Virus record (IMG/VR): IMGVR_UViG_3300034128_000023
Coordinates: 147 to 64,146 of that record
Source of the DNA: a virus
Taxonomy: Duplodnaviria; Caudoviricetes
Length of the DNA: 64,000 nt
Strand: one strand, 5' to 3'
The stretch's first letter is position 1. Each line of letters begins with the position of its first letter. Below the pieces are notes generated by a model. It searched no databases. It had not been told where the DNA came from and worked only from the letters and a program-made list of their open reading frames with translations. The translations under genes were made by a program, and so were the position numbers. Below, piece after piece: positions 30,660 to 51,496 of this stretch.

Positions 30660-31679
30660 ATGGTGGGTAACTCGCACGATTTTCTCGTCAGCATCCTAGG
30701 CTCAGCCGGCGCAGAAGCCTTGCGGCGCGCAGCCCAGCGCCAACCGTCGTTGGGGTCGTTGCTTGTCCCGCGGGCGGCCCTGGCCTGGGTCCAGACACAA
30801 AAGAGCTTCGACGGTGTCGTTCCAGGTAACCCAGGACGTCTGGCGTTCGCGAAATCCGAGTCGGGCCTGACCGGCCAGGTGCTGGTCGGAGACAACCTCT
30901 ACGAGTTCGCGAACGCCACTCCCGAGCACGTAGCTGCAGCCCTTTCGGTCTCGGTCGGCGCCGGTGAGACCACCGACCAAATCTCACGCCAAGTCCTTGT
31001 GAGGCTCGGCAAGTCAATCGACACCTTGGTGCAGGCCCAAACGGCCCGTCTCGCCAAGAGAACTCTCGACCCCGCTCTCGGGTACCGCCTCTCAGAAGAG
31101 CACCTCCCCGACGGCATCAGGATTCACGCCCACGACAAGCAGGGCGGCCATGTGGGGACCGCATGGTTCCAGAACGACGGCAGCGGCCTGAAGCCCGTCA
31201 CCATCGCCGTGGATGAAGACCACCAGCGTCGAGGCATCGCCGGTGCCATGTACGAGCACGCCAAGAAGCTCACCAATAAGCCCATCACGGCCCCCGACCT
31301 TCTGACGGATGAGGGCGCAGCTTTCCACGCCACCATCAAGACAGAGCTTCCAGGAATGACCGCGAAGCCCAGGGCTCAGCAGGGCCCGGAAGCCGCTGAA
31401 CCCCCGAAGATGCAGCCCCGAATGGCGCGACCCAAGCTTCCCAAGCCCCCGAAGCTCCCGGCACTGAAGGTGGAGAAGTCCGAAATGGCGCGCCTGTGCC
31501 CGATGTGCGGCCGGGGTCATTTTGAGGGCCAGCGCTACCGCGGATGCCTGTGCACGCGAGACCTGGCCAAATCTATTCGTACCCAGATTTTTAATGATGG
31601 CGTAGTGTTGGAGTTCGGTGGCGACTCGACTCGCGACGTGTTCCACCTAATCAGGAAGGCGCTCAAAAATGGCACCTAA
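30660..31679 (+). CDS. putative head protein with GNAT domain and C-terminal Cys cluster
   Basis: IAVDEDHQRRGIAGAMY acetyl-CoA motif; FAKSE/VEKSE/LAKS motifs; CPMC...CLC. Confidence 0.7.
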   Translation: MVGNSHDFLVSILGSAGAEALRRAAQRQPSLGSLLVPRAALAWVQTQKSFDGVVPGNPGRLAFAKSESGLTGQVLVGDNLYEFANATPEHVAAALSVSVGAGETTDQISRQVLVRLGKSIDTLVQAQTARLAKRTLDPALGYRLSEEHLPDGIRIHAHDKQGGHVGTAWFQNDGSGLKPVTIAVDEDHQRRGIAGAMYEHAKKLTNKPITAPDLLTDEGAAFHATIKTELPGMTAKPRAQQGPEAAEPPKMQPRMARPKLPKPPKLPALKVEKSEMARLCPMCGRGHFEGQRYRGCLCTRDLAKSIRTQIFNDGVVLEFGGDSTRDVFHLIRKALKNGT

Positions 31680-31810
31680 CTTTTCTGGAGACAGCCTGAC
31701 AGGTTCGTGGTAAAGTACGTACTGATGAATCTGACCTACCACTACCGCGTTAAGAACGCCGCAAAGAATATTCTCGCGGTATCGGGCATGATACTCCTGC
31801 AGAGGAAGCC

Positions 31811-32212
31811 ATGATTCAAGGAAAGGCCAAAGACTGGTACGGTAAGCCCGTCCTCAACGATACTGACGTTGATGGTCTCGAGACAGCCGCCGCATGGAAG
31901 GAGTTTGGGGAAGGCACGCCACGCAAGCAGGCCGAGCAAGAGGCCTACGACGAGTACGCCAAAACCCAGCACCAGAAGGCCGCAGCTCATCACCTTCGAG
32001 GTATGAGGGCTGCCCAGGCATCTGGCGACCTCGACGAGTCCAGGCTGCACGGCGAAGCGTACCACCATCATATGCTGAGCCTCGGGCATGACCCGACCGA
32101 CCAGGTTCCTGACGAAATCAAGGCGCTGGTCGAGGACGAGGGCAAGGCTCGCCATTACAAATTCAAGTCCCACCCCGCCGATGGACTCTTGGGCAGCGCT
32201 CCGGCACCTTAA
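31811..32212 (+). CDS. hypothetical late protein
   Basis: 133 aa ORF; SD GAGGA. Confidence 0.7.
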   Translation: MIQGKAKDWYGKPVLNDTDVDGLETAAAWKEFGEGTPRKQAEQEAYDEYAKTQHQKAAAHHLRGMRAAQASGDLDESRLHGEAYHHHMLSLGHDPTDQVPDEIKALVEDEGKARHYKFKSHPADGLLGSAPAP

Positions 32213-32233
32213 TCCTGCCCGGGACCGCCGCCG

Positions 32234-32239
32234 TAATCT
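32234..32239 (+). promoter_or_regulatory. putative late promoter TAATCT
   Basis: GTAATCT then CAGGAG SD before ATG 32262. Confidence 0.7.
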
Positions 32240-32261
32240 GACTGTTCAGGAGACTCACTGA

Positions 32262-34001
32262 ATGGCCAGGACCACACTTATTTTTCCGGGTGCCTTCCCT
32301 GAGATTCACATCTCGGACAATAGTGGCGGCAAGTCTGCGGCGGGTACTGGTCGTGGCCCCCCGGGCCCCGCCGGCCCCCAGGGCCCCGCCGGCCCCCAGG
32401 GCCCAGTTGGCCCTCCGGGAAGTCAGGGCCCCGCCGGAATTCAAGGTCCCGCTGGCCCCCAGGGCCCTGCAGGCACGGGCCTCTCCGGCTGGATTGTCAT
32501 CAACGACATCGCAATCACCGGTGGTGGAGTTGCCTCCGACAAGACCTGGGAAGATGCCCCGGGCAACACCGTGCTCCAGAGCTGCACGATTTCGGGGCTG
32601 AACCTCGACGTGTCCGTCAGGGCCAGCTACCCCCGCGTTGTGGTGGGCGGAGTTCCCGCCCTGCTGGCTCGCGACGCCTCGGGCGGATTCTATTCTGGAA
32701 CCGTACCCGTATCGGTACTTGGTTCGGGTGACTTGATTGCTCAGGTGGTCTCGCCAGACGGTGACCTCGGCAGCCTGGACACCGCCGTACTGACCTACGA
32801 TGCTCCTCCCACGATTCTGACCCTTGCCTTCACGGGCGGGTACCCAGGCAGCCAGACTGAACTCAAGGCTGGCGACACGTTCCAGATTTCCGGCACGACC
32901 GACGTCGCGGCAACAGGTGTTGAGGTCCAGGACTTCGGCGCGTGCGTCCTCCAGACGATTTCGTTCCCGTCGACCACTTCGTTCGTCATTATCGTCACTA
33001 TCGCAAACCGCGGCACCGCGTCACTGCCCTACTTCGCCCAGGTGAGGGCCCACAACGCGGCCAACGCTTACGGTGCTGTCGTTCCGACCAGCAACAGCGT
33101 CGTGCTCTGCAACCTTTACCCGACCGTTTCCTTCGGAGCGAAGACCTACCCCGCATCACAGCTCGCCCTGAAGAATGTCGAGTCGGCAACGGTAGCCGTC
33201 ACGCTTGCGAATCTCGATGTGGTGTCGTTTGATTCCCCGAACGGTGAAGTCTCAATCGCCAATCCTGCACTGATTGAAGCGACCAAGACGGTCTCCCGTA
33301 TCGGGGGTTCGTATAATATCTCCACCAACAACCTGAGGGCGACGGCGACCAGGTCTGCCAACGCAGCTCTCACCACGGCCCAGACGGTGGTCTCGATTGC
33401 CAACGTCGCACCAACCGTCGCTGTAGCCACCCCTGCAGCACGCCTGAGGTCGGGCGGAAATAACGGCACCGCAGCACAGGGCCACACGATTACCATCACC
33501 GCGAACCAGCAGCTCCTCAACGCCCCTCTGATGGATGGTGGGGCTGGCGGGGGAACCTTCGCTGGAGTGTGGGCGGGTGGTCCTTCGGTCTGGACTCGGA
33601 GTCTTTCCGTCCACGACAACGACGTCAAGGGGCCATACGCTTTCGGAGGCCTCGTCGCTACAGGCCTGGCCGGCTTGGTCCAAAACGCAATCGGGTCTGG
33701 CTCCGCATACGTCCTCGGTGGTTTTGTCCAGCGCTCTCTGACTTTTGGAGCCTTCAATCAGAACACGGCCCTGAACGTCGCGGTCGTGACCTACACGAAG
33801 CTTCAGGCCGGAAAAATGAGCGCTACCGACCAGCCGGCGCTTCGCAACGCCACCCAGGGGGACCATTCCAACATTGCCAACACCTACACGGTCGACGCCC
33901 TGACGGCAAACCCGGTAAACTTGTTCTGGAACGATGCCGTCGCCGCCGCTACCAATGCGTCCGGCACAGCAGCCATCCTGGATGTCGAGGAAGTGGCGTA
34001 A
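32262..34001 (+). CDS. virion fibre/decoration protein with collagen-like repeat and beta-rich domains
   Basis: (GPP/GPA/GPQ)n; Thr/Ala/Val-rich Ig-like pattern. Confidence 0.8.
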
Positions 34002-34717
34002 TGGAAACAAGAACTTGCTCCACCTGCAAGAACACCAAACCTCTGGACCGTTTTTCTTCGGGGCGTGGCCAGTGCAAGGAGTGCAGAGGCGCCGCTTTTA
34101 GGATTGTGGCGGCGCCGGCTGAGGGTCCTCCAAAAACGTGTTCCAAGTGCGGCGCCCTAAAGGCAGCAGCTATGTTCAGTCCGATGCGGGGGGACTGCAA
34201 GGCGTGCCGGGCCGAGTATCTTCGCAGGTACACCCTCGAACACGCAGATGAGCTGGCTGCCAAACAGACGATTCGGTCTAAACGGAATTATTGGGAGGAC
34301 CCAGAGGCCGCCAAGGCTCGTTCCAAGAAGTGGGCCCAAAGCAACAAGCAAAAGGTCACCGCCAAGGCGCAAAGATATCAGGACCGGCACCCCGACCTGC
34401 TCGCCGCAAAGGCCGCAGAGCGCAAAACATATTACGCCACGCACCCCGTGGAGGCAAGGAACCGTTCTCTGCGCAAGAAGTACGGCATGGCTCCAGAGGA
34501 ATACGACACGTTGTTCCGCGCACAGGAGGGGGTCTGCGCGATTTGCGGCTCTACGCCTGGGGTTCGTCGTCTCGCGGTGGACCACGACCACGTAACCGGC
34601 AAAATTAGAGGGCTTCTTTGCGGGACCTGCAACACCGGCCTGGGGGCCTTCAAGGACCGCCCCCACCTCCTTCTTTCCGCCGCCACATACCTTCTGACCC
34701 AAAAGGCGGAACAATGA
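34001..34717 (+). CDS. endonuclease VII-type HNH (homing) endonuclease with Zn fingers
   Basis: KKYG...Q.GVCAICG...LAVDHDH.TGKIRGLLCGTCNTGLG. Confidence 0.92.
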   Translation: METRTCSTCKNTKPLDRFSSGRGQCKECRGAAFRIVAAPAEGPPKTCSKCGALKAAAMFSPMRGDCKACRAEYLRRYTLEHADELAAKQTIRSKRNYWEDPEAAKARSKKWAQSNKQKVTAKAQRYQDRHPDLLAAKAAERKTYYATHPVEARNRSLRKKYGMAPEEYDTLFRAQEGVCAICGSTPGVRRLAVDHDHVTGKIRGLLCGTCNTGLGAFKDRPHLLLSAATYLLTQKAEQ

Positions 34718-35244
34718 GTGCCTTTACCGATTTTGTCACAATCGAGCTTCCCCTTCGCCCCGTACTTCTCACGTCAGGGAATACGGGCTACGACGGTGAC
34801 CCGAACGACGGCGGCGTTCCGCCCGTCCTCTCCAATTCGCCTCTCGGGACCCTCTACCTGCGGGCCTCGACGGGCGTGCTGTACCAGAAGCAGTCCGCTA
34901 CGCCTGGGACCTGGCTCATGGTGGGTGGCGGCGGCGGTACGGGGCTTTCCGCAGACAACCGCGCCATGGCCGCATCTGTCACGGTGGCCGACGGAGACCT
35001 CGCTGTTTCGACCCCGCTCGCTTCGACCTTGTCTGGTTGGGTCGCTGTGGTCGCTGGCGGGCAGGGATGCCATCTGGGGAACGGCACCAAAGTAGGATGC
35101 GACTGCTACTTCAGCGCCGACGGCGGCGTGACGCCCCGTGCCTCGGGCGCTCTCCAGGGCGGCGACCTGCTCTACTGGAACGGCTCTGTTGCCGGCTTTC
35201 AGTTGGCCACGACCGACCTGATTGATTTTATTTACAGCGCGTAA
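34714..35244 (+). CDS. virion protein with DCYFSADGG module
   Basis: C-terminal module shared with 35294 and 39167 genes. Confidence 0.8.
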   Translation: MSAFTDFVTIELPLRPVLLTSGNTGYDGDPNDGGVPPVLSNSPLGTLYLRASTGVLYQKQSATPGTWLMVGGGGGTGLSADNRAMAASVTVADGDLAVSTPLASTLSGWVAVVAGGQGCHLGNGTKVGCDCYFSADGGVTPRASGALQGGDLLYWNGSVAGFQLATTDLIDFIYSA

Positions 35245-35256
35245 CGAAATTGGCTG

Positions 35257-35262
35257 TAATCT
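35257..35262 (+). promoter_or_regulatory. putative late promoter TAATCT
   Basis: GTAATCT-CAACGT-A, then AAGGAG SD. Confidence 0.7.
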
Positions 35263-35293
35263 CAACGTAGCACCCTAGCAAGGAGTAACAAAA

Positions 35294-36460
35294 ATGGCTC
35301 AGATGGACGGCAAGATGATTAAGAACGGTACGGTTACTTCGGCTAAGGTCGACAGTACCGTCCTGGTGACCGACGCGGCTCGCTCCCTCGTCGCGACTTT
35401 GACTGTCGGCACTGGCGGGGACATCATCGTTCCTTCCGTACCGGCCGGCGACACTTCGGCCGTCAACAAGGCTTACGTTGACGCCAAGGCCCAGGGCCTC
35501 GACCTGAAGAACTCGGTCAATGCCGTCACCGCGGTGGCCCTGCCGGCCTACACGCGTACTGGCAATGTCATCACGGCCAGCTCCCTCGGTGCCCTGCCAG
35601 CAATCGACGGCGTGACCCTTGACGCAGTCAACAAGAACCGCCTCCTCCTCAAGAACGGCGCGGCCGGTGCAGACAACGGCATTTACGTTGTGACCAACGC
35701 TGGCTCGGCTGGCGCCGCGTTCGTGTTGACCCGTGCCGATGACGCCGACACCGACGCCAAGGTAACGAGCGGCATGTTCACCTGGGGCATTGAGGGGACC
35801 CTCAACGGCCTCAAGGGCTGGGCTCTCACCACCCCTGACCCCATCACCCTGAACACGACCGCGCTTTCGTTCACGCAGGTCTCGCAGGCCACTGCTCCCA
35901 CGTGGGGCGGCATCACCGGCACCCTGAGTGCACAGACCGACCTCCAGACCGCACTGGACGGCAAGGTTGATGAGAACGCCGCTATCACTGGCGCGACCCA
36001 CACCAAAATCACGTACGACGCAAAGGGCCTCGTTACCTCCGGCTCGGACGCGACGACCGCAGATATCGCCAGCAGCACTGACCGCCGGTACGTGACCGAC
36101 GCACAGCTCGTTGTTGTCGGTAACACCAGCGGAACCAACACCGGCGACCAGTCCTTCCGCGCCGACATGCGGAGCCTGACGGCTTCGGTTACCACGGCAG
36201 ACCACGACCAGGCGATGGTGGCCACGGTGTCTGCATCCAACACCCACGGCGGCGAAGTTGCCGTGTTCGTGGACGGTCAGAAGCAGTTTGTCGCGGTCGA
36301 CGGCGCAACCCGCAACGGCGATTGCTACTTCAGCGCCGACGGCGCGGCGGCTCGTGCATTCGCGGCAATCGTCAGCGGTGACAAGCTCTACTGGAACGGC
36401 TCGATTGCCGGTTTCCAGCTCGCTGCCACCGACAAGATTGACGTTCTGTTCATGCCGTAA
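35294..36460 (+). CDS. modular fibre/decoration protein
   Basis: AVNKAYVD..AQGLD.K.SV fibre-type motif; TWGG.TGTLS.QTDLQ module; CYFSADG module. Confidence 0.85.
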   Translation: MAQMDGKMIKNGTVTSAKVDSTVLVTDAARSLVATLTVGTGGDIIVPSVPAGDTSAVNKAYVDAKAQGLDLKNSVNAVTAVALPAYTRTGNVITASSLGALPAIDGVTLDAVNKNRLLLKNGAAGADNGIYVVTNAGSAGAAFVLTRADDADTDAKVTSGMFTWGIEGTLNGLKGWALTTPDPITLNTTALSFTQVSQATAPTWGGITGTLSAQTDLQTALDGKVDENAAITGATHTKITYDAKGLVTSGSDATTADIASSTDRRYVTDAQLVVVGNTSGTNTGDQSFRADMRSLTASVTTADHDQAMVATVSASNTHGGEVAVFVDGQKQFVAVDGATRNGDCYFSADGAAARAFAAIVSGDKLYWNGSIAGFQLAATDKIDVLFMP

Positions 36461-36551
36461 GCTGTAAAACCACACATCCCCTGGTTGGCGCCACCCGACA
36501 GACGAGGTGGCGGGCGGTCCGATTCCGCCGGTGTGTTAGGATGGGACACTA

Positions 36552-38678
36552 ATGCGAACTCCTCTTAAGCAGATTGCTCCCGACGGCGCCACCAATGGCC
36601 AAGCCCCGGTCTTCAACGCCACGTCCGGCCACTGGGAGCCCGGCACCGTAGGCTCGCCGACTGTCGGAGCGTTTTCTGGCATGGGGACCGCCGAGGGCGC
36701 TTCCATCTCGGCTGGCGTGCTGCACATCACTCCGGCGACCGACCTCCTCCCCGGAGCCGTAAGTACTGGGGTGCAGTCCTTTGCGGGCGACAAGACCTTT
36801 ACCGGTAGCGTCGCTGTTGTTGGCAACATTACCGCCGATTCGGTTACTGCAGCCAACGCGAACTCCTTCCTGAATTTGGGGAGCGGTCCTGCGCAACTGT
36901 TCCATTACGGTACGAACGGGGTGAATTCTTACGTCGCGATTAGTGACACGGCACTGGAACTCTCCATCTACGACGACCTCAACGGGCAGTGGGGGTCCAC
37001 GTTCAGCATGAGCGAGGCTTCGACAATCCTGAATGCGAGCGGTTCGGTGTACCTGCACGCAGCCTCGGCCGCTCGGCTGAGCGGCGGTGTTGGCATTCAG
37101 TCCACGGACGTAGTTGTCCGCGTGGGCTCTATGGTAGGCGACGCTTCCGTCCACGCAGACGCGAAGCTCTTGTCGGTCGGCACCAACCTGGCGGCGACCC
37201 CCGTCGAATACTTTGGCGTCACCAAAAGCTACACCCTCATGCAGGACGCCAGGTTCAACCCCAAGGCGGTCTCTGCGTCTCCCGTTGAGGGCATGGTTTA
37301 CTACGACCAGACAGCGCACGTTCTGAAGTTCCGTAACGCGTCAGCATGGGTCGACTGTGGCGGCGGCGGCGGTAGTTTCAGCATGGGAGCGTTTGGGAGC
37401 ACCCCAAACGCGAACGGCGGAACTGCCTCTGCGGGCGTTCTGACTCTTCAGCCCGCTGACGGAACTCATCCGGGTGGGGTGAGCACTGGAACGCAGACGT
37501 TCGTGGGAGCGAAAACTTTCTCGAATGGTGTGTTCGCCGGAGGCTCGGGTCTGACCGCCACCGGAGAGGTTTTCTGTTCCTCTGGCGGTTTTTACACGAA
37601 CAACGCCGCGGGCGCCCAGCTCTACGTCAATCTGGGCACGGTTGGCGCGGGAACGACATGCGCAAAGGTAGGGACGACCAAAGCGGCGGCCGACCTGCTC
37701 GACGACACCAGACTTCTCTCTGTGCAGAGCGGTCTGGGGAACGTCACGGAGGTCGAGCATTTCTTTATTACGAAGAACAGCGCGTCCTTTTCTGGCAGCG
37801 TCACCATGACCGGAGACGTGTATTCGGGCAGCGGCGTTTTTTGGGGCGGCGGGGCTGCTATCAATGGTGTGAAGCTGTATTGCGTACCAGAGTTTGGCGG
37901 CGGGGCAACTGACGTATGTGTGACGGCGGGGACCGCCAGGGCTACCGCAAGCGTCGACGCCGGCGCCGCCCTGCTCTCTGTCCGTACAGGCGTCCACGGG
38001 ACCGAAAGCGAGCACTTCAAAGTCACCAAGACCGGCATCACAGCGGCAGAGCTGACCGGCAACGCGGCAACGGCCACCAAGCTCGCAACGGCCCGCACAA
38101 TCAACGGCATTTCATTCGATGGTACGGCGGACATCAACCTACCTGTGATTGGCGCTCTGCTGAGCCGAGGCAACACCTATATCTGCGGACAGAATTCGTG
38201 CGGGAACGTCGGTGGCGCCAACAACACAGCTCTCAGGCAATATTTTGTCCCGTTCGTCCTTGCACGCACGGTCAGCGTCACCCAGCTGGGGGGCGCCAAC
38301 GGCGCTGGCGGGAGCGGCACAGCCCAGGCGGGCATCTACGGCAACACGACAGTTGGGGGGCTCGACCACCCCGGCACTCTTCTTGCGTCGGTTTCCCTGC
38401 CCAACATGGCCCTCTCGGGCTTTTTGAGCGGCACTGTATCTCTGACGCTCCAGGCTGGCACTATTTACTGGGCCAGCTTTGTGTCTACCAATATCGCCAC
38501 CTGGCTTCAGGCAAATGCGAACGAGATGACCTGTCTCTTGGGTTGGGCCGGCACCAATAGGAACATAGCTCAGACCCACCTCTACGATACTCTGGCTTCT
38601 GCTGTCCTGCCCGGCACCGCGAACACCACCTTGACGTCCAACATCGGCGCCGCATGTACGGTCGCCTTCGTATATTAA
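36552..38678 (+). CDS. long tail fibre-like protein
   Basis: Internal repeats (PGAVSTG.Q.F.G.KTF; LLSV.T.); ATATKLATARTING.SFDGTADI motif. Confidence 0.85.
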   Translation: MRTPLKQIAPDGATNGQAPVFNATSGHWEPGTVGSPTVGAFSGMGTAEGASISAGVLHITPATDLLPGAVSTGVQSFAGDKTFTGSVAVVGNITADSVTAANANSFLNLGSGPAQLFHYGTNGVNSYVAISDTALELSIYDDLNGQWGSTFSMSEASTILNASGSVYLHAASAARLSGGVGIQSTDVVVRVGSMVGDASVHADAKLLSVGTNLAATPVEYFGVTKSYTLMQDARFNPKAVSASPVEGMVYYDQTAHVLKFRNASAWVDCGGGGGSFSMGAFGSTPNANGGTASAGVLTLQPADGTHPGGVSTGTQTFVGAKTFSNGVFAGGSGLTATGEVFCSSGGFYTNNAAGAQLYVNLGTVGAGTTCAKVGTTKAAADLLDDTRLLSVQSGLGNVTEVEHFFITKNSASFSGSVTMTGDVYSGSGVFWGGGAAINGVKLYCVPEFGGGATDVCVTAGTARATASVDAGAALLSVRTGVHGTESEHFKVTKTGITAAELTGNAATATKLATARTINGISFDGTADINLPVIGALLSRGNTYICGQNSCGNVGGANNTALRQYFVPFVLARTVSVTQLGGANGAGGSGTAQAGIYGNTTVGGLDHPGTLLASVSLPNMALSGFLSGTVSLTLQAGTIYWASFVSTNIATWLQANANEMTCLLGWAGTNRNIAQTHLYDTLASAVLPGTANTTLTSNIGAACTVAFVY

Positions 38679-38685
38679 GGAAAGT

Positions 38686-39126: not shown

Positions 39127-39138
39127 CCCGGTTGAGCG

Positions 39139-39144
39139 TAATCT
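39139..39144 (+). promoter_or_regulatory. putative late promoter TAATCT
   Basis: GTAATCT then AGGAGA SD. Confidence 0.7.
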
Positions 39145-39166
39145 TAGCACGTAGGAGAATACATAA

Positions 39167-40329: not shown

Positions 40330-40339
40330 TTTGTTTTGT

Positions 40340-41580: not shown

Positions 41581-41581
41581 G

Positions 41582-42478: not shown

Positions 42479-42480
42479 TA

Positions 42481-42780: not shown

Positions 42781-42843
42781 GGTCGGCACCATACCTGACC
42801 CGGACCCTTGCCGTCAAGGGCAAATTGGTGTAATCTTCTGGGC
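42781..42843. promoter_or_regulatory. back-to-back early (minus) and late (plus) promoters
   Basis: minus TTGACG/TATGGT; plus GTAATCT 42830-42836, N7, ATG 42844. Confidence 0.7.
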
Positions 42844-45429
42844 ATGCAAAATGTTTATCTGTCAGGCGGGGCCGACCAGCCACTTCGGGAAATCGAAGTC
42901 GCGAGCCAGGCAGATGATTTTGAGCGACTCCAGAGGTACTCCCAGGCCCTTGAAGGTGCCATGGATGGCTGGAAGTCTTGGGTGCTGGCGTGCGGCGGCA
43001 CCGTATTCGCCATGGGGCCAGAGTCCTTCCGGGCCCGCATTGGGGCCGACCGCCTTCAGGAACTCCCCCACCTCCGCACCCAGTTCGCTACCGCCGTCGG
43101 CGCCACGATTTCCATTGGGGTTGGAGCCAAGCTGTCGGAGGCCGACCGCGCACTCGAGGCAGCCAAGAAGGTCGGCGGTGACCAGATTCGGCTGTATGAT
43201 GGGTCGGTCGAAGAAGACCTCCGTCACGAAAACGACGAAGAGGGCCTGAGCAAGAACCAGGCCGCCTTCCATGACCCCCGCGATGGCAAGGTGTACCCCA
43301 CCGGGTCAATCCACGACCTCGAAGGTCTCCCCGAACACCTCCAGGACGATGCCGTCAACGGCGTTCTGCAGTCTGGCTTTGTCGACACCCAGGGCCAATT
43401 CTTCCAGCGCAAACCGCGCCTCCCTCACACGGACGTCCAGAAGGCCGAAGACCCCCTGAACACGCCAGCGGCCGGCGGCGGAATGACTGGCCCCTCACAG
43501 CCCAGCCCGGAAGCGCCCCAGGCTCCCCTCACTGAGGCGTCCGAGCACTCCGAGAACGAGGCTCTGGCCAACATGCTGCGCAGCGCCCCCAGTAGCGCCC
43601 CGATGGACGTTGGGCAGCTCCATGACTCCTTCGACATGGCAGCCTCAGCCCAGGGCCAGCAGGACGAGAAAGAGGCCCAGATGCAGGGCCAGCAGGCAGA
43701 CAGCCAGGCCCAGACCTCCGACATCAAGTCGCGGGTCGCCGCTATCCTCAAGGTCTTCAAGGCGCGCGCTCCCGAACTCGAGCAGCTCCAGGACCAAGAC
43801 CCCGAGCTGTACCAGACCATCGTAGGAATGCTCAAGGCCATGACCGACATGGCTCGCGAGGCCAGTCAGGCCCCCGTGCAGAAGTCGGAAATCCTCCTGA
43901 AGATGGAAAACTGGAACCAGATGGCCCTCGTGTCCCCTGAGGGTGTGCTCCACGACACCGAAGGTCAGTCGCACCCCGACTGGGCCCACGAGAATCGCCA
44001 TCTGGTGGGATTCGTGCCCACCCACGATAGTGACTACAAGCCCGCGGCGGAGAGCGACGGCCAGGCCACCCAGGACAGCGAAGGACGCATCGCCCTCGAC
44101 CACTTCCTCGACGCAGGATGGACGCGAATCAAGCCCAACATGGGGGTCCAGGTGTCGGGATTGCACTCGGGCAATATCCGTACCGTGCATAAAATCATCC
44201 GAGCCATGGCCAAGCAGAACCCTGGCCGGCCCCTTTCGGTCGACGACGGCAACGGCAGCGCCCACGTGACCGTCAGCGGCTCGGGGCGACCGGACCTGTC
44301 CGTCCTGAATAGCCGAATTCAGAAGTCGGAGCTTATCAAGGGTTACCCCAAGGACGAAGACGAGAACCGAGCCAACGAGGCAGCCCACCAAATCCTCCAG
44401 GATTCTCTTGAAGAGAAGGGCGGCCAGGTCGTCCACGGCGCTGGTCCCTTGCTCCCCACAGGGGGTCGCACCGGCAAGACAGGCAAGCCCCTGAAGGACT
44501 CCCCCGTCTCGAGGTCTAGGATTCGCGGCGCAGCTGCGGCGAACCGTGGCGAAAACGAGCCAATTTACGCGGAGATGGACCCCGCCGCCCCCTATTATGA
44601 CGCCGGAATGCCCGCGGTGACTTCGAAGCCGACGGGGTTCACAGGTGGGGGCACGTCGGTGTCTGCCGGCCTCGGGTTCTCCAACGCCACCCCCCAGCGC
44701 ATCGCCGAGGGGGCCGACAAGCGATGGTGGGAAGATGTGGACCGCGGGTCCTGGGACCAGGTCAGTGACTCCTTCAATCGGCAGCATCCGTTTCCGGGCC
44801 ACCTTGTCGCGTTCTACGGAGGCAAGGACAGGCATCCGGGAATTGCCGTAGCGGCTCGTGCTCAGCCCGGCCGTCTCCTCGGCCGCTACCCCATTCATCC
44901 CGACACAGGCCAGCTCGGCTCCCCCGTCTCAGCGAACGGACTGACAGAGGTCCGCGACCTGCCCCCGGAAACCAAAGCGGCACTCCAGGCCCACTTGACC
45001 CAGCATTGGCCCACCTTCTTCAAGAAGCCTGCGGTTCTCAAGGCGGACCTCATGCCCGGCGGAAAGGCCGACGACAAGACCGACGACGACTTCGACCCCG
45101 ACGACCTGGCAGAAGGTGCCCGCATCGAGGCCGAAGAGCACGGGCTCGACGAGGCTCGCGCCAAGGAAATCGCCCGGGACCACCTGACCGAAAACTCGCA
45201 ATATTACAAAACCGCCAAGGCTGCCCTGGTTCCGCGGAAGACGGGCGTCCATCAGGTCCACTATCCTGTTGGGTCCCAGAAGGATGCCGGAGCCCAGGGC
45301 ACCCGTGACGTGGGGAAGATTAAGGTGCAAAGCAGTGCTGACGGGAAAACCAAGTGGCGGTCGGTTAGGGCCGGTCTCGTGATGGACAAAGAGGGGAACC
45401 CCATCTCCTCACGAAACCCAGGAGGGTGA
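42844..45429 (+). CDS. putative head polyprotein: degenerate mCpol-like domain, several small domains, DUF5661-like domain
   Basis: N-terminal palm pattern (TISIGVG..L.EA..AL..AKK.GG..I..Y); K[SA][ED] linkers; E.EH....A.EIA.DHL.E...YY. Confidence 0.75.
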   Translation: MQNVYLSGGADQPLREIEVASQADDFERLQRYSQALEGAMDGWKSWVLACGGTVFAMGPESFRARIGADRLQELPHLRTQFATAVGATISIGVGAKLSEADRALEAAKKVGGDQIRLYDGSVEEDLRHENDEEGLSKNQAAFHDPRDGKVYPTGSIHDLEGLPEHLQDDAVNGVLQSGFVDTQGQFFQRKPRLPHTDVQKAEDPLNTPAAGGGMTGPSQPSPEAPQAPLTEASEHSENEALANMLRSAPSSAPMDVGQLHDSFDMAASAQGQQDEKEAQMQGQQADSQAQTSDIKSRVAAILKVFKARAPELEQLQDQDPELYQTIVGMLKAMTDMAREASQAPVQKSEILLKMENWNQMALVSPEGVLHDTEGQSHPDWAHENRHLVGFVPTHDSDYKPAAESDGQATQDSEGRIALDHFLDAGWTRIKPNMGVQVSGLHSGNIRTVHKIIRAMAKQNPGRPLSVDDGNGSAHVTVSGSGRPDLSVLNSRIQKSELIKGYPKDEDENRANEAAHQILQDSLEEKGGQVVHGAGPLLPTGGRTGKTGKPLKDSPVSRSRIRGAAAANRGENEPIYAEMDPAAPYYDAGMPAVTSKPTGFTGGGTSVSAGLGFSNATPQRIAEGADKRWWEDVDRGSWDQVSDSFNRQHPFPGHLVAFYGGKDRHPGIAVAARAQPGRLLGRYPIHPDTGQLGSPVSANGLTEVRDLPPETKAALQAHLTQHWPTFFKKPAVLKADLMPGGKADDKTDDDFDPDDLAEGARIEAEEHGLDEARAKEIARDHLTENSQYYKTAKAALVPRKTGVHQVHYPVGSQKDAGAQGTRDVGKIKVQSSADGKTKWRSVRAGLVMDKEGNPISSRNPGG

Positions 45430-45587
45430 CATCACCCGGTACGAAGGTACCGACCACTCTCGCCAATTCGCCCACGGAACCATCGCCCAAACCAGGAGCT
45501 GGGCCAGATTGGGGGTCTCCGCGTCGACGACCAACTCGAAGTCCAACCCCGCCTGCTTGCGGGGCACCACGTAGACGGTGAAGAGGC

Positions 45588-45830
45588 TCACTGACGCACC
45601 CAGCCAAGCTTTTCCATGGCCGAAGCCCAGCTCTCCGGGTTCGCGTCCTTCTTCAGACTGCCCCGAACCGTCCAGCCGAACTTCATGTCCCCGACCGAGA
45701 ACTTGTGCAGGATTTTCCGGTCCGACATCAGGGCGCGGGTCTCGAGGCGGGTAGCGCCGTCGACGCCGTGGGGAAGAGTCTTGGTGAAGCGGTAGAGTTC
45801 GGTCCGTCCATTCGCGCTCAGCTTGGCCAC
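45588..45830 (-). CDS. hypothetical protein
   Basis: GTG start, SD AAAGGAG, TTGACG-N17-TATATA upstream. Confidence 0.7.
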   Translation of the reverse strand: MAKLSANGRTELYRFTKTLPHGVDGATRLETRALMSDRKILHKFSVGDMKFGWTVRGSLKKDANPESWASAMEKLGWVRQ

Positions 45831-45901
45831 GGTGTAGCTCCTTTGTAGGAACGTATATAGAATACCCCACGAAGGTCGTCAAGTGGGTAATCTTCATTAT
45901 T

Positions 45902-46729
45902 GTGATTAATCTCAACGTCGACCTGACCGCGATACTGGAACTGGGGAAAGACCTGGAGCCAACGGTCAAGAAGGCCCTTTCCGAGGCCGCGGGCAACCTG
46001 GCCCTGCAAACCCACGCCCACATCGTCGAGAAGGTCCAGAAAGAACTCCACTCGTCGCGAGAGAAGTATCTGGGCGCCCTCGAATTCAAGCAGGTGAGCG
46101 CCGACACATGGGTCATCAATCTTGACAAAGCCGCCATGTGGATTGAGCAAGGTCAGCCGGAGCATAGTATGCTGGACGACTTGCTGTCAAGCCCCAAAGC
46201 AAAAATGTCAGCTGATGGTTCAAGATACGTCGTCGTTCCGTTCGAGCACAACAAGGGCCCGACCCGCCAGACCCAGGCCCAGAACGACCTGACCAATACC
46301 ATCAAGGCGGAAATGAAGAAGCGCCAAATTCCTTATGGGAAACTTGAGTTTGCTGCGGATGGGGCTCCCAAGGTCGGCAAGCTGCACACCTTCAACATCA
46401 ATGCCCCCAACAAGACCGCAGAAGGTCCAGGTCAGGGGCACGGGCAGATTGGCCAAGCCCGCCAGGGCCCGACGGGGATTCCTTTCTTGCGGGGCGTCTC
46501 GGTCTACCAGAAGCAAATCAAGGACCAGTCCACCGGCAAGACCAAGGTCAAGAAGGCCATCATGACCTTCCGCGTCGCCTCCTCCAAGCACCAGGGGACC
46601 GAGCGCTGGCATCACCCCGGGACCGAAGCCAAGGAGTTCTTCGAGGACGCTCAGAAGTGGGCCCTCGAGCAGTGGGAGCGCAAAATCGTCCCCGACATCA
46701 TGCGGCGCCTTAGCTCCGCTAACTTCTGA
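45902..46729 (+). CDS. putative neck / tail-completion protein
   Basis: GTAATCT 45887-45893 upstream; YVVVPF, FRVASSK, W.HPG motifs; structural context. Confidence 0.65.
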   Translation: MINLNVDLTAILELGKDLEPTVKKALSEAAGNLALQTHAHIVEKVQKELHSSREKYLGALEFKQVSADTWVINLDKAAMWIEQGQPEHSMLDDLLSSPKAKMSADGSRYVVVPFEHNKGPTRQTQAQNDLTNTIKAEMKKRQIPYGKLEFAADGAPKVGKLHTFNINAPNKTAEGPGQGHGQIGQARQGPTGIPFLRGVSVYQKQIKDQSTGKTKVKKAIMTFRVASSKHQGTERWHHPGTEAKEFFEDAQKWALEQWERKIVPDIMRRLSSANF

Positions 46730-46943
46730 TTTTAGACTTGTGGGGTGTGGGGGCGTCGCGGTGTAGAATCATCGACGAAACCAGATACGAAAAAACCGTA
46801 CCGGCGTCCAGGACCGCAGTCAAGGCCTTCGATGCTGAAGCGCGGGTGATGAACGGCCCGAGAATCACGGGTTCATCCGTCTCGAGCACGCGATACGTAA
46901 CCCTGAACTCCTCGGTGTCAAGGAGCATGTGGGGTCTTGGCAA
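46719..46943 (-). CDS. hypothetical protein
   Basis: 74 aa ORF. Confidence 0.5.
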   Translation of the reverse strand: MPRPHMLLDTEEFRVTYRVLETDEPVILGPFITRASASKALTAVLDAGTVFSYLVSSMILHRDAPTPHKSKIRS

Positions 46944-47163
46944 TCAGGCGGGTCAACTCCTGCTTCTCCTGGGCGGATGGCGGGGGGTAAATCATCTTCT
47001 CGAGAGCCTTCACTGCGTTGACCTCGTGGAGCAGGAAGGGCAGGTCAGAGTTCCCCGAGTACAGCGTGAAGAGCCGGTTCTTGTAGGACTGCAAGCCCCT
47101 GACGAGTGTCGCCACCTGCTCCTCGGTCAAAACAGCGTCTCCGATGGTGATTTCTGAGGTCAT
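46918..47163 (-). CDS. hypothetical protein
   Basis: TTGACA-N17-TAGAGT-N7-ATG upstream. Confidence 0.7.
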   Translation of the reverse strand: MTSEITIGDAVLTEEQVATLVRGLQSYKNRLFTLYSGNSDLPFLLHEVNAVKALEKMIYPPPSAQEKQELTRLIAKTPHAP

Positions 47164-47195
47164 GCTACAGACTCTACCATCTCGAAGCGCCGCTG

Positions 47196-47507
47196 TCAAC
47201 GCTTGCTGCCGAACCGCAAGAGGGTGGTCTCGAGGGCGTCAAGCATGTCGACGTGCGAAATACGGTCGAATTTGTATTTCTCGTTGAACTTAGCTGCCTC
47301 TTCGGCTAGGAGGGCAGCAATCTTGGCCTTGGTCGAGAGAAGCCACTCGGTCCTGTACGTGTTGGGCATTATCCCCTTTTTGAGGGAGGCTTGAATCGCA
47401 GCCCTCTGCTGCAGCCCGAAGGCGATTTTGGCGTCTACGTCGGTCACCAAGCTGTGGAGAAATTCGCAGATGGCAGTCAGTTGCTGGGAAGAGAGCTTGT
47501 CGTCCAT
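47196..47507 (-). CDS. hypothetical protein
   Basis: Extended -10 TGCTACAAT-N6-ATG upstream. Confidence 0.7.
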   Translation of the reverse strand: MDDKLSSQQLTAICEFLHSLVTDVDAKIAFGLQQRAAIQASLKKGIMPNTYRTEWLLSTKAKIAALLAEEAAKFNEKYKFDRISHVDMLDALETTLLRFGSKR

Positions 47508-47544
47508 GGGTCCATTGTAGCACGTTTGGCGTAATCTCTGTCGT
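47508..47544. promoter_or_regulatory. compact divergent early/late promoters
   Basis: minus TGcTACAAT; plus GTAATCT-N7-ATG. Confidence 0.7.
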
Positions 47545-48558
47545 ATGCCCCTCATCCGAGCCCTCGAGCTTCCTCTTCCAGACCATCAGAACACCAAGGT
47601 CTTGGGGGTTCATCAGGGAGACCTGATTATTAAATCAGCTCTGGACATGGCCATTGCCGACATCAGGGCCAACCCGTGGCTACTCGACTACGTGTGGGCC
47701 TCTGTGGTCCAGGACGCACTGACCGCCCGTACGTACGGGATGGCAGACCTGGAGAGAAGCAAGGAGTGGTTCCTGAACACGGACTTCCCCGTCAAGGTGG
47801 GGCCCGTGATGGACGAGACCGCGGTTCCGGTCATCGTTGTTTCGCTGGGCAATTCAGAAGAGCAGACCGCGGAGGCGACGATTGGGGACATCAACCCGGA
47901 CGGTGCGACGGAGGATAACACCTCCGCGGAATGGCCTCCGATGACGACCCCTCTGATTCCCGTGTCGTACGACCAGGCAACGGGCGTTCTTGTTCTGAGG
48001 GAGAAAGACATCCCGTCGGACTTTTCGGTCGCTGAGGGCATGTACGTAATTGACCGGTTCGGTGCGCCTCACGAAATCAAGAAGACCTACGGACGAGCAG
48101 CTGTCGGAGTTGCTCCAGGCACGGTTGCCGACTTCCGCGGGGGCACCATCAAGACGGCCCGCCCCACTTGGCTGACTTTTGTTGAATCCTCCAGCTTCCG
48201 CGAGTCGTACCAGCTCGCCGTCAAAGTGGGTGGGGAGCCAGTCAACACCGTCCTTCTGCACTCCGTCGTTGTGTTTTGTTTGCTCCGCTACAAGGAAGTT
48301 CTCTTGGAGGCCAGAGGGTTCGAGCGCTCGACGTTCACCTCCAGCGACCTGAAGCTCGACACCGAGATGTCGGAGACCCAACCAGTGTTCGCCCGATACA
48401 TCAGCTTGAGCGGATATATCAGGCAGTACTGGCCCAAGCTCGTGACCCCCAAAATCGCCGTGGCTTATACGCAAGGGCGCGTCATCGCGGCGGGTCCGAC
48501 GGGGACACAGGACTGGAGCCTCGACGACGACTCAATTGTACTCACCGGGCGGGGGTAA
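47545..48558 (+). CDS. putative tail terminator/completion protein
   Basis: 337 aa late gene upstream of sheath; beta-rich C-terminus. Confidence 0.55.
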   Translation: MPLIRALELPLPDHQNTKVLGVHQGDLIIKSALDMAIADIRANPWLLDYVWASVVQDALTARTYGMADLERSKEWFLNTDFPVKVGPVMDETAVPVIVVSLGNSEEQTAEATIGDINPDGATEDNTSAEWPPMTTPLIPVSYDQATGVLVLREKDIPSDFSVAEGMYVIDRFGAPHEIKKTYGRAAVGVAPGTVADFRGGTIKTARPTWLTFVESSSFRESYQLAVKVGGEPVNTVLLHSVVVFCLLRYKEVLLEARGFERSTFTSSDLKLDTEMSETQPVFARYISLSGYIRQYWPKLVTPKIAVAYTQGRVIAAGPTGTQDWSLDDDSIVLTGRG

Positions 48559-48568
48559 TCTCGACCGT

Positions 48569-51496
48569 ATGCCGGTACCTGAGCATCTCAAAAATCACCC
48601 CGTGTTTTCTGGGAAGGGCTCGTTCGGCATCATGTCGGCCGAAGACCCATACTTCCCGGCCGAGACCGCCTCCACCTCAGAGAACCTTGGCGCGCACCTG
48701 AAGGCTCTCGGCCTCCACCACGAGCCCGTCGTCGGGCAGTACGAGAACGCCCGTGAAAATTCATCTCTAATTCACAACCCGACCCGCGAACAGATGATGG
48801 ACCTCGGGCGCAGGTTCGGCCAGGAGTCGGTCGTCTTTTCGCAGAACGGCAACCATGAAATCCTGTACACCAACGGTCCCCACAAAGGCAAGTCCAGGGT
48901 TCAGCACCCCGAACTCCCCACCTCCGAGTTCCTGACCGAGCCTCCGCAGCACGGTGGCTACACGCAGTTGCCCGGCGGCGAGATGTTCCGCCTGAATTTT
49001 GACTGGGGCCGCCAGCCGGCCGTTGTTCGCGACACCCAGTCTCACCCCCACGATTATTCCTGGCACGACACCAACACGTACCACAGCAGGTTCGACAAAG
49101 GCTATTCTGGGAACTCGCTGAAGAAGAGTGAGCAGCCCCTGGACATGAAGCTGCTGACCCCGTTCGGAACGGTTGGCGGTCCCCAGTCCCCCACCGACTT
49201 CAGCCACCTGCTCGGCCACAAGCTGGCCGACACCGAGGAGCTGGCAGCCAAGTACGGCTACAAGACCTTTTTGCATAGTGGGCGCTACGGAGCCCCCGAC
49301 TTCGAGGCGCACAACTACAGCACTGGGTTCTTGCCTATTTCTGACCCCGGCGCAACCGACCACGCAACGGAATCTGGAGTGCGAGCGTACCGTACTCTTC
49401 ACGAGCTGGCCCACGCCCTGACGTACCCCGAAATCAACAAGCTCTACGGCGAGTCGAGACGTAGTGGTGCGATGGGTGAGCGAACCCCCCACGAGACGAT
49501 GCGCTCCGTGCACTGGGAAGACCTCGCATCGAAGCGCCAGCGTGCTCTTGCCAGCGAAATTGGCGTGGCCGTGTCGGACCCCGACTTCAACAAGGACCGC
49601 AACTCTGTGATGGCAGACGCTGTCCATCGCGCCGTCACCGGTCGGGAATCAACCCCGCTGTCCCAGCTCGGCTTCGTTCCCCACTCTCACGAAGTCCCCC
49701 TGTCTACCGCTCTCGACTCCGTTCGTGCAGCTGCCGAGGAGAGGGGAATCCCAGGCCTCCACGACCACGCCGCACCGAAGGTTTCGGTCGCTAAGTCTCT
49801 GGCCAAGTCGGACACAGTCAAGGCGGCCTTCCGCCACAAGAAGACGGGCGCGGTCGTGACAGCCGAACACTTCCACGACCCCTCCGTACTGCCGGAAGGT
49901 CACTCGAAGACCGACTACGACGAAGGCTTCGTCGAGCGCGGAGCGTTCCATACCCGCGACGAATACAAAAAGAAGTACCCCCGCAAGATGAAAATCAAGA
50001 AAGCGGAGCTGCCGGCCCCGGTAATCCACACCAGCGTCGAGGGCTTCCTGAAGGGCCTCCAGGCCATCCCGAAAGGAACGCCCGAACGAGGCAAGTTCAT
50101 CACTCGGCACATGGGGCACGCTGGCTTTATTGGTGCGCTCCGCGCCCACGCGCAGGGGCCGCAGATTTTTAAAATGCTGACCGCACATCTGAACAGCCCG
50201 GCCAATGCTGGTCCGGGTAGGGCGGTTGTGACAGCGAAATCAGAAGACGGCGTAATCTTGCTGGACGGGAGTAAACACGTGGCTACAGACCCTATTGCAG
50301 CGCTCGAGCGAATTCAGGTGTTGTCGGCGAAGCTCTATGAGCTGCACAAGAAGGAGCTGGAGAAGCAGCTCATTCCTCCCCACGACCACAACGTGGGCGT
50401 GACTGTCGGAGCAGGAATGGAAGACGTCGCTCCTGGCCGTCTCGACCACCGAGGTCAGATTGGCGGCACTGCCACCCGCAACCTTCCCCGCAAGCCGCAG
50501 GGCGTAGTTAAGGCGGCCCCGACCGAGACCTCCGCTGAGGCCTCCGCTGAGGCCTCCGCTGAAGAGTCCACCAAAGGTCGCGAAGAGTCGACGGTCGCCG
50601 CCCTCTGCAAGCTCTGCAAGAAGGGTCCGTGCGCGTGCGCCGCAAAGGGCGAGATGTCCGCAACCGGAGTTCTTCCGGGCGACAAGCCAGTCAAGGAAAG
50701 CTCTGTGGACGGGACCGGTGGCAAAATCAAGTCGGTCTCCGCCATCCGCAAGTCCGCGATGGAGAGCATGCAGAAGGCGGAGATTGCTCCGGGCGTGCAT
50801 TCCGACGCCGTGGCCAAGCCGACCCCCACCGTTTTTCCCGCGGCTCCCGCGAACGCGCCCCACTCGACCCGCCTGACGGAGGCGCTCAAGCTGGGCCAGC
50901 CTGTGCACGCGATGGCGCACCCCAACGGCATGCTCGAGTTCGTCCCCCCAGGGATGGTCCGCAACATCAGTGTCACCCAGAAGAGGCCGGTGTTTATGGT
51001 GCACCCAGCCCCCGTCGCGAAAGCTGAGCCCCCGATGGCAAAGCCGCCCGGCGGGAAGAACATGGCGACCCACACCCCGACTTCCAAGCCGGCCGCAGTA
51101 GCGCCCCCGAAGACGAAGATTCCGAAGCCCAAGGCCAAGATTGCAGTCGCCACGATGACCTCTGGCAACGTAGGCAATGCAGGAGCAGCGATGGGTACCG
51201 CCGCAGGTGGCGGTCTTGGCAAGGGCGTTATGTCCGACATCGCCCAGCGCGAGTCCCAGTCGATGGGCGGACCTACCGCAGTAGCCCCCGCCCCCAAAGC
51301 AGCCCTGCCGAGCCCGAGCCAGCAAGAGGACCGAGCCGCGATGTTCGCTGGCGCCATGGCTGGCGACTACACGCCCCCGGCCGCAGCTCCCAAGCCGAGG
51401 GTCGTAGCGGTAAATCCTGTTGGTGCAATCCCAGCAACAAAACTCACGAAGCGGCCTGGCATTTTTGGTCGTCTTCCTCTCAACAATCCCAAGTAA
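48569..51496 (+). CDS. putative head polyprotein with HExxH peptidase domain and Ala/Pro/Lys-rich tail
   Basis: GTAATCT-N7-ATG; LHELAH; many K[SA][ED] linkers. Confidence 0.8.
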   Translation: MPVPEHLKNHPVFSGKGSFGIMSAEDPYFPAETASTSENLGAHLKALGLHHEPVVGQYENARENSSLIHNPTREQMMDLGRRFGQESVVFSQNGNHEILYTNGPHKGKSRVQHPELPTSEFLTEPPQHGGYTQLPGGEMFRLNFDWGRQPAVVRDTQSHPHDYSWHDTNTYHSRFDKGYSGNSLKKSEQPLDMKLLTPFGTVGGPQSPTDFSHLLGHKLADTEELAAKYGYKTFLHSGRYGAPDFEAHNYSTGFLPISDPGATDHATESGVRAYRTLHELAHALTYPEINKLYGESRRSGAMGERTPHETMRSVHWEDLASKRQRALASEIGVAVSDPDFNKDRNSVMADAVHRAVTGRESTPLSQLGFVPHSHEVPLSTALDSVRAAAEERGIPGLHDHAAPKVSVAKSLAKSDTVKAAFRHKKTGAVVTAEHFHDPSVLPEGHSKTDYDEGFVERGAFHTRDEYKKKYPRKMKIKKAELPAPVIHTSVEGFLKGLQAIPKGTPERGKFITRHMGHAGFIGALRAHAQGPQIFKMLTAHLNSPANAGPGRAVVTAKSEDGVILLDGSKHVATDPIAALERIQVLSAKLYELHKKELEKQLIPPHDHNVGVTVGAGMEDVAPGRLDHRGQIGGTATRNLPRKPQGVVKAAPTETSAEASAEASAEESTKGREESTVAALCKLCKKGPCACAAKGEMSATGVLPGDKPVKESSVDGTGGKIKSVSAIRKSAMESMQKAEIAPGVHSDAVAKPTPTVFPAAPANAPHSTRLTEALKLGQPVHAMAHPNGMLEFVPPGMVRNISVTQKRPVFMVHPAPVAKAEPPMAKPPGGKNMATHTPTSKPAAVAPPKTKIPKPKAKIAVATMTSGNVGNAGAAMGTAAGGGLGKGVMSDIAQRESQSMGGPTAVAPAPKAALPSPSQQEDRAAMFAGAMAGDYTPPAAAPKPRVVAVNPVGAIPATKLTKRPGIFGRLPLNNPK

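Follow-up and report, generated by a model that had tools for sequence, protein, structure and literature searches.

Three late proteins of an Mx1-like myxophage carry a putative head-maturation protease site between their modules

The head protease of phage T4 cuts at L/I-x-E and that of phiKZ at S/A/G-x-E, in both cases after Glu. Proteins that are packaged and later ejected are processed at short repeated motifs by T4 gp21 (acting on IPI-III and Alt), phiKZ gp175 and SPN3US gp245 (PMC10052503; PMC9026906), and propeptides of this type can be cut at several sites (PMC10052503). Phages and conjugative elements also encode polyvalent proteins, multi-domain proteins that are predicted to be packaged in the capsid and for which autoprocessing by a zincin (MPTase) has been proposed (Iyer et al. 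2017, PMC5512222). Here we describe three proteins encoded in a 64,000-nucleotide stretch of tailed-phage DNA (IMG/VR record IMGVR_UViG_3300034128_000023, positions 147 to 64,146; hereafter, the window) that appear to combine features of these systems. We call them T1 (30660-31679), T2 (42844-45429) and T3 (48569-51496); the last is unrelated in name to phage T3. All three repeat a short motif, a hydrophobic residue (ψ) followed by x-K-[S/A]-[E/D]. On balance, we favor the view that T1-T3 are late, capsid-targeted polyvalent cargo polyproteins that are punctuated by a head-maturation protease site of the SPO1/HK97 type, cut there, and delivered with the DNA. We infer their cleavage, capsid location, ejection and anti-defense function.

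The original prediction, made from the letters of the window, had listed strings of this motif in T1, T2 and T3 and an LSKSE in the protein encoded at 18541; all of them are present in those genes. Written as [VILMFA]-x-K-[SA]-[ED], the motif has 11 matches in the 2,175 residues of T1-T3 (11% of the window's coding residues) and four in the 17,427 residues elsewhere in the window, from about 105 called open reading frames (ORFs; binomial p = 3e-8). Shuffling of T1-T3 yielded means of 0.92 matches (whole protein) and 0.95 matches (within 40-residue blocks), and none of 20,000 shuffles reached 11. The original prediction had also noted no recurrence of the motif in sheath, tube or fiber proteins. 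Indeed, none of the three K[SA][ED] strings in the window's sheath protein has a hydrophobic residue at -2, and the fiber proteins have no match. A GGKAD string at K741 of T2 was not counted as a site; it lies inside a block with a predicted local distance difference test (pLDDT) score of 95.

The window comprises nearly all of a 64,146-base IMG/VR contig with a CheckV completeness of 38%. The sheath protein encoded at 51521-54055 shares 44% identity with its counterpart in Myxococcus phage Mx1 (OR576727.2, 169.6 kb), and sequence comparison identifies the source as an uncultured Mx1-like myxophage. The two genomes are syntenic: 18541-18840 and 18842-19732 correspond to Mx1 30724-31846, T1 to 31850-32788 (tblastn E 5e-39), 31811-32212 to the beginning of 32791-33705, T2 to 33963-35369, 45902-46729 and 47545-48558 to 35369-36247 and 36563-37561, and T3 to a portion of 37603-39282, with sheath and tube next. 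The terminase, portal, “putative prohead protease”, capsid protein, and large NUDIX and kinase proteins of Mx1 have no counterpart on this contig. Because these head-module genes are missing, the protease, capsid, scaffold and portal were examined in relatives. A scan with a two-sequence sheath alignment returned 164 related IMG/VR stretches, of which 80 were kept; the complete relatives in that set span 168-182 kb, and the relatives' sheath proteins are 44-53% identical to that of the window phage. The same scan with a single sheath protein as the query gave no matches, nor did megablast of 42844-51496 against GenBank phages.

The enrichment extends to these relatives. In 54 non-redundant T1-T3 homologues from related loci, the motif occurs 99 times against 16 expected, a count that overstates the number of independent events because homologous sequences share ancestry. 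No such enrichment is present in other virion proteins of the relatives: the sheath has 11 matches vs. 16.6 expected, the tube 0 vs. 1.7, and the neighboring proteins p275 and p337 have 4 vs. 3.5 and 0 vs. 3.8, respectively. The earlier negative observation holds here too. In a complete relative (G001; 168.6 kb, genes from our own calls based on GC content at third codon positions), about 24 of 36 matches fall in the block from the portal gene to the T3 homologue, and the roughly 35,000 residues outside it have the motif at expectation. Individual positions show distinct preferences. At the central position, K is enriched 8-fold and R is at 0.4-fold. The enrichments at +1 are 8-fold for S and A, 4.5-fold for T and 2-fold for G, and those at +2 are 9.7-fold for E and 5.8-fold for D. 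The -2 position favors L, T, V, M and I, and there is a weaker preference for L at +3.

Where do the sites lie in the proteins? AlphaFold2 models were made for T3 (on a 28-homologue alignment) and T2 (on a 22-homologue alignment). Every one of the ten sites, six in T3 and four in T2, is in a segment with pLDDT < 50; such segments comprise 47% and 50% of the residues, respectively (p ~7e-4). Four of them, K186 and K478 of T3 and K347 and K733 of T2, are within five residues of the edge of a confident domain. The earlier impression that the motif marks domain borders is borne out by these models.

T3 (975 amino acids; 48569..51496, + strand, as are all of the sites below) is encoded directly upstream of the sheath gene. 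It is modeled as an S-adenosylmethionine (SAM) lyase fold (residues 1-153), a zincin-like HExxH domain (189-400), a helical domain (483-548), a long helix (574-603) and a low-complexity tail rich in Pro, Ala and Lys. LKKSE (K186; 49118..49132) is three residues ahead of the zincin domain and in register with nine homologues, and LAKSD (K413; 49799..49813), with a relaxed VAKS just before it, follows that domain in register with eight. IKKAE (K478; 49994..50008) is five residues ahead of the helical domain, and TAKSE (K557; 50231..50245) lies between that domain and the long helix. Two more are MQKAE (K736; 50768..50782) and VAKAE (K818; 51014..51028), the latter in register with three homologues.

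The first module of T3 was missed in the original prediction. Residues 1-150 adopt the fold of the phage T3 SAM lyase (gene 0.3 product; 8bb1, 7ock), with 12-18% identity: Foldseek matched them to 8bb1_E (E 6.6e-5; target-normalized TM-score, TMt, 0.62), and VIA-align aligned 130 residues with 7ock_L (Z 10.5). The sequence hints are weak, with Pfam DUF3293 at the cut-off (E 2.8e-5) and S-AdoMet_lyase below it (E 1.3e-3). Phage T3 makes its SAM lyase early, as a small protein; in contrast, the fold in the window is the first module, with putative lyase activity, of a 975-residue late protein. A SAM lyase encoded by a late gene of the virion module would be most useful if it were delivered as a protein. 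In the second module (189-400), the 28 aligned sequences conserve HELxHAL. Weak structural similarity to ArdC (6sna_A, Z 4.5), 6cyj_A (Z 5.8) and Peptidase_M78 clusters suggests a zincin with a faint likeness to the metalloprotease half of ArdC and to ImmA/IrrE.

T2 (861 amino acids; 42844..45429, +) begins with an mCpol fold (1-141), which is followed by a helical domain (261-343), a weakly modeled beta segment (650-726), a DUF5661-like helical domain (734-795) and a C-terminal beta module (805-861) that is also modeled less well. VQKAE (K200; 43435..43449) is in a disordered linker, VQKSE (K347; 43876..43890) is four residues past the end of the helical domain, and IQKSE (K494; 44317..44331) is in register with VQKSE or VQKAE in three homologues. 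VLKAD (K733; 45034..45048) immediately precedes the DUF5661-like domain, and BLAST matches of relatives to that module start at this motif. The mCpol fold is well supported by Foldseek (9mnr_A, OptS mCpol; E 9e-7, TMt 0.89, root-mean-square deviation 1.4 over 116 columns, 24% identity). The Pfam matches to mCpol (E 4.4e-5) and DUF5661 (E 0.003) are below the cut-off. T2 has SGGA and AMGPE where most relatives keep the catalytic motifs DGD and GGDEG; homologues of the 42844-43266 segment with both motifs intact could mean that those phages carry an active mCpol in the virion.

T1 (339 amino acids; 30660..31679, +) consists of an N-terminal module, a GNAT-like segment (about 158-204; Pfam Acetyltransf_7, E 6.5e-5, below the cut-off), a Pro/Lys-rich linker, and a Cys-rich C-terminal module that is conserved among homologues. 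Its FAKSE (K65; 30846..30860) aligns with FQKSD of the G001 homologue. Its VEKSE (K273; 31470..31484), which closes the Pro-rich linker directly before the Cys-rich module, is kept as VVKSE in Mx1 and VGKSE in G001 and is degenerate in some others. Looser strings, LAKS and IKTE, are also present. The domain list of the original prediction (mCpol-like, GNAT, zincin and DUF5661-like) therefore holds in part: the mCpol fold is confirmed in a catalytically degenerate form, the GNAT and DUF5661 assignments rest on sub-threshold Pfam matches, and the zincin has a conserved HExxH with weak likeness to ArdC and ImmA.

Sites are positionally conserved, and modules are shuffled. Across the T3 alignment, sites of sequences that are 30-45% identical are in register at reference positions 152, 186, 413, 548/557, 691, 728, 818 and 855, and no reliably aligned sequence has a site inside the two large folded modules. 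One hot spot of the T2 alignment follows the mCpol domain and another the helical domain (reference 345-369, in 10 homologues); the rest are at 494, 733-742 and 791-796. T3 residues 3-148 correspond to stand-alone genes for 181-207 residues in some relatives, and residues 194-399 to a gene for 271 residues in others. BLAST matches often begin or end at the motif.

The same motif marks head-assembly proteins of the relatives. Immediately upstream of the capsid gene is an ORF that is presumably the scaffold, given its acidic, Pro/Ala-rich middle and helical C-terminus. It has five sites in Mx1, four in G001, and five, six and four in three other complete relatives (G002, G005 and G003, respectively), with about 0.9 expected; one conserved site is about 25 residues from the C-terminus. 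The Mx1 portal, of 686 residues, has one site at residue 47 and another at 639, and the C-terminal one has a match in the G001 portal. The protease-bearing protein of the relatives is marked by the motif as well. The original prediction had proposed checking the capsid N-terminus for the motif, and there the outcome is divided: in four genomes the N-terminal region of the capsid protein has L-x-K-A-[LM]-E-A-G-N, a relaxed site, and the full motif is absent. K[SA][ED] strings in the capsid body (G.KAE near residue 135, RGKAD near 160) have no hydrophobic residue at -2, lie in conserved folded sequence and were not counted.

A second copy of the capsid N-terminal peptide (A-[LM]-E-A-G-N-[YF]-N...G-G-S-A-L-Q) lies within the giant protein that bears the protease, at 7054-7146 in G001 and about 13700-13800 in Mx1. 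In both the capsid and the protease-bearing proteins, ψ-x-K precedes the peptide. Judging from these sequences, a cut at ψ-x-K would expose the same N-terminus on both.

Which protease would recognize the motif? In Mx1, the annotation “putative prohead protease” is attached to a protein of 1,239 residues, and 56 relatives have its N-terminal domain too. A profile of 56 Mx1-like N-terminal domains of this kind aligned with SPO1 gp3.2 over 131 columns (hhalign Prob 98%, E 2.7e-13), and the His (EH) and Ser (S.EG) residues are invariant in it. Pfam returned nothing for this domain even at E <= 10, and PHROGs gave a weak match only (phrog_1028, E 1e-4). Membership in the HK97 family is not claimed: comparison with gp4 gave E 0.32 for two sequences and E 0.021 (Prob 2%) for 56, so we call the protease SPO1-type only. 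When a two-sequence protease profile was searched against PDB sequences, the only matches were low-complexity noise. The 130-residue protein at 27803-28195 of the window was considered as a protease and set aside, as its profile match spans just 16 residues (Prob 8%). In several relatives (proteins P0006, P0021, P0028, P0033, P0035, P0042, P0047 and others), the SPO1-type protease domain is fused to PI3/PI4-kinase, GGDEF and DUF5661 domains; with such varying cargo, the protease itself heads a polyvalent protein.

The likely position of the cut comes from described capsids. The capsid protein of Mx1 and SPO1 gp6.1 share 25% identity (E 4e-24), and the Mx1-like site (L-L-K|A-L-E) corresponds in gp6.1 to L-N-K23-A-L-E-A-G. 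A literature search for a published K/SPO1 capsid cleavage site found nothing usable, and PDB chain boundaries were used instead. The phi812 capsid protein is deposited at its full length of 463 residues in 5lii_P; chain 9row_B, with 439 residues, begins at the homologous position with S25, the residue that follows V-V-K24. These chains are consistent with the earlier statement that K/SPO1-like phages cut their capsid precursor at K-S. Mature HK97 gp5 (1ohg) begins with S104 after F-N-K103, and five of its six ψ-x-K-[SA] strings are in the removed delta domain. Because the mature chains of phi812 and HK97 start just after ψ-x-K, the cut is probably between K and S/A, which makes P3 the hydrophobic position and P2' the E/D position. 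The SPO1 scaffold gp3.3 (SPO1 7928-8662) has 12 ψ-x-K-S strings in 244 residues, and the motif rule seems to hold across the head modules of the Herelleviridae. Six ψ-x-K-S strings were also observed in the SPO1 protease gp3.2, and two near the N-terminus of the SPO1 portal.

How does this system compare with its described counterparts? With the Herelleviridae (SPO1, phage K/phi812), the Mx1-like phages share a homologous protease domain and capsid protein, ψ-x-K|[S/A] at the capsid N-terminus, and a scaffold packed with the motif. In contrast to that family, their sites strongly prefer E/D at P2', their protease domain is at the front of a protein (about 1,250 residues) that also has cargo domains, and the site recurs between the enzyme modules of several large late proteins. 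We know of no such cargo polyproteins in the Herelleviridae, with the proviso that the search was not exhaustive. The HK97 gp4/gp5 delta domain shares the cut after Lys, the hydrophobic P3, the Ser at P1' and the presence of several ψ-x-K-[SA] strings; HK97 differs in having neither a separate scaffold nor any known enzyme cargo. In T4- and phiKZ-type processing, it is mostly N-terminal propeptides that are removed, whereas in the Mx1-like phages the predicted cut is after Lys and the sites separate successive enzyme modules. A Glu-ended N-terminal propeptide of that type is absent from T1-T3; their motif is centered on Lys, and the first sites (at 65, 200 and 186) come after whole folded domains.

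Like polyvalent proteins, T1-T3 have at least two unrelated effector-type domains, a late virion gene context, a mosaic architecture and, in T3, a zincin-like domain, and on these sequence features their architectures fit that class. The paper that defined the class describes autoprocessing or no processing, with no head-protease site at domain junctions, and the word “Myxococcus” is absent from its main text (PMC5512222). Other large late Mx1 proteins, which are paralogous, have ART-PolyVal, NUDIX, GNAT, and PI3/4-kinase or HipA-like domains, a set characteristic of polyvalent proteins with predicted packaging (PMC5512222). Pfam gave no match of T1-T3 to MPTase-PolyVal, ART-PolyVal or MuF, the ART-PolyVal domain being in a different Mx1 protein. 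The original prediction of polyproteins cut by the prohead protease gains support insofar as the motif behaves like a head-maturation protease site, given its presence in scaffold and portal and at the capsid N-terminus, the SPO1-type protease, and the starts of the mature phi812 and HK97 chains. As a concept, it is not novel, since polyvalent proteins (PMC5512222) and internal-protein processing of the T4/phiKZ/SPN3US type (PMC10052503) were already known. The new part, plausibly, is the enzyme polyprotein punctuated by a capsid protease site; SPO1/HK97-type maturation, polyvalent proteins and processed ejection proteins are the known parts.

The genes for T1-T3 are co-oriented with and adjacent to sheath, tube and fiber genes, and they share a sequence element with them. 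A TAATCT box precedes T1 (30644..30649, +), T2 (42831-42836) and T3 (48556-48561), as well as the genes for a 99-residue protein, sheath, tube, several fibers, p275 and p337. The window has 19 TAATCT matches vs. 7.5 expected (18 of the 19 on the + strand), and none of 100 shuffles reached 19. The end of the box is 8-22 nucleotides from the start codon, and the genes are nearly all of the virion genes in 18528-62208 (+). Based on its sequence and placement, TAATCT is a candidate late promoter or translation-initiation element. Its occurrence before both T1-T3 and the virion genes supports their co-expression and the start codons used.

These observations can be assembled into a mechanism. T1-T3 would be expressed late, along with the virion genes, as folded modules joined by disordered linkers that carry ψ-x-K-[S/A]-[E/D]. 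Inside the prohead, the head protease, presumably encoded on the part of the genome missing from the contig, would recognize the motif and cut at K|S/A in the cargo as it would in the scaffold, the portal ends and the capsid N-terminal peptide. The predicted fragments, with masses of 7-25 kDa, are 1-65, 66-273 and 274-339 for T1; 1-200, 201-347, 348-494, 495-733 and 734-861 for T2; and 1-186, 187-413, 414-478, 479-557, 558-736, 737-818 and 819-975 for T3. They would be retained inside the head and pass into the cell together with the DNA, and some could act before any phage gene is expressed.

Could the sites instead be cut by a zincin of the T3 type, in MPTase-like autoprocessing of the polyvalent protein before or after delivery? 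The conserved HELxH of T3 189-400 and its weak fold likeness to ArdC and ImmA/IrrE metallopeptidases would suit such a role, and Iyer et al. propose autoproteolysis for polyvalent proteins such as P1 DdrB (PMC5512222). However, Mx1 is equally enriched in the motif, yet tblastn finds no homologue of T3 189-400 in it at E <= 1e-5. Moreover, the motif fills the scaffold, the portal and the capsid N-terminus, which are classical head-protease clients, and it agrees with the K|S cleavage documented for SPO1/HK97-type proteases. Autoprocessing is therefore an unlikely general mechanism, and we give this explanation little credence. It is also rather unlikely that the motif stays uncut and serves as a docking signal that recruits cargo to proheads (by way of the scaffold, the capsid interior or the protease) or is simply a favored linker sequence. 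Its location in disordered segments would fit either role, and in several homologues it is 3-12 residues from the C-terminus, where a cut would remove almost nothing. Nonetheless, the homologous capsid position is the mature N-terminus in phi812 and the maturation cut in HK97, and a strict K followed by a small and an acidic residue, with a hydrophobic P3, is a typical protease subsite pattern; docking and cutting can also coexist.

The placement of the T1-T3 genes between fiber and sheath genes, interleaved with p275 and p337 and with no capsid gene nearby on the contig, would suit neck, tail or baseplate accessories whose motif has no relation to head maturation. This we regard as improbable: the neighboring p275, p337, sheath and tube proteins are unenriched, the motif tracks head-assembly proteins in the relatives, and tails are not built from SAM-lyase, mCpol or zincin folds. 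An artefact of chance or of Lys/Ala/Glu-rich linker composition is barely credible. It is true that some matches of the relatives are in K/A/E-rich low-complexity stretches (AKKAE, EKKAE) and that the motif was defined after the sequences had been looked at; however, chance is rejected by both types of shuffle, R does not substitute for K, and the sites stay in register among homologues of 30-45% identity.

Several points weigh against capsid-cut cargo polyproteins, the reading that we prefer. The capsid N-terminal site has no E/D at +2. Motifs 3-12 residues from the C-terminus, found in some homologues, suit a docking signal better, for a cut there would achieve little. The T1-T3 genes are situated among neck, tail and fiber genes and not beside the capsid gene. 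By its sequence, the mCpol domain of T2 is catalytically degenerate in this phage, and the functions of the SAM-lyase-like, GNAT-like and zincin modules are putative. The homologue counts are subject to the shared ancestry mentioned above, and the proposed link to protease, scaffold, portal and capsid is drawn from sequences of relatives whose sheath proteins are 44-53% identical. Finally, neither proteomic nor biochemical results on an Mx1-like phage were found, and the Mx1 genome note (PMC10720576) gives none.

If the preferred reading is correct, one short motif would provide a sequence-only rule for the capsid-carried proteins that an entire clade of large soil phages injects at time zero. 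It would also predict the mature pieces in which the cargo arrives, which are hard to learn without proteomics. The polyvalent-protein idea would gain a concrete processing mechanism, with a capsid protease in place of autoproteolysis, and an SPO1/HK97-type protease, known for trimming capsid and scaffold, would also mature enzyme cargo. Such cargo points to protein-delivered anti-defense activities that other phages express as early genes, the SAM-lyase fold being an example. More tentatively, and with some doubt, we suggest a generalization to the Mx1-like myxophages (at least 80 related IMG/VR contigs): the head protease might be a general loading and release device, modules flanked by ψ-x-K|[S/A]-[E/D] might be independent capsid-delivered effectors (here a SAM lyase, a zincin, an mCpol-derived module and an acetyltransferase) whose cassettes are swapped at the linkers, and the motif might be the bar-code of a time-zero arsenal. 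Because Mx1 is cultivable, the prediction is directly testable.

A further possible substrate is the 99-residue late protein (18541..18840, +). Its LSKSE site (18742-18756) is LSKSE in the Mx1 homologue and LSKSD in that of G001.

Other genes lie within the late region. A gene for a 516-residue homing/HNH endonuclease (54015-55565, - strand; phrog_3339, E 8e-67) separates the sheath gene from the tube gene. GC at its third codon positions is 0.63 vs. about 0.78 in its neighbors, and the gene looks like a mobile insertion. Amid the tail-fiber genes, an ORF with a lower coding score (34172-34717, +) resembles an HNH/endonuclease VII by eye (Cys pairs and a D-H-D-H...N motif). Just ahead of T2, the late block is broken by two genes on the opposite strand (40749-42529, -): one encodes an RNA ligase (PF09414, E 4e-14), and the other a protein with an N-terminal dATP/dGTP diphosphohydrolase domain (PF18909, E 1.4e-16).

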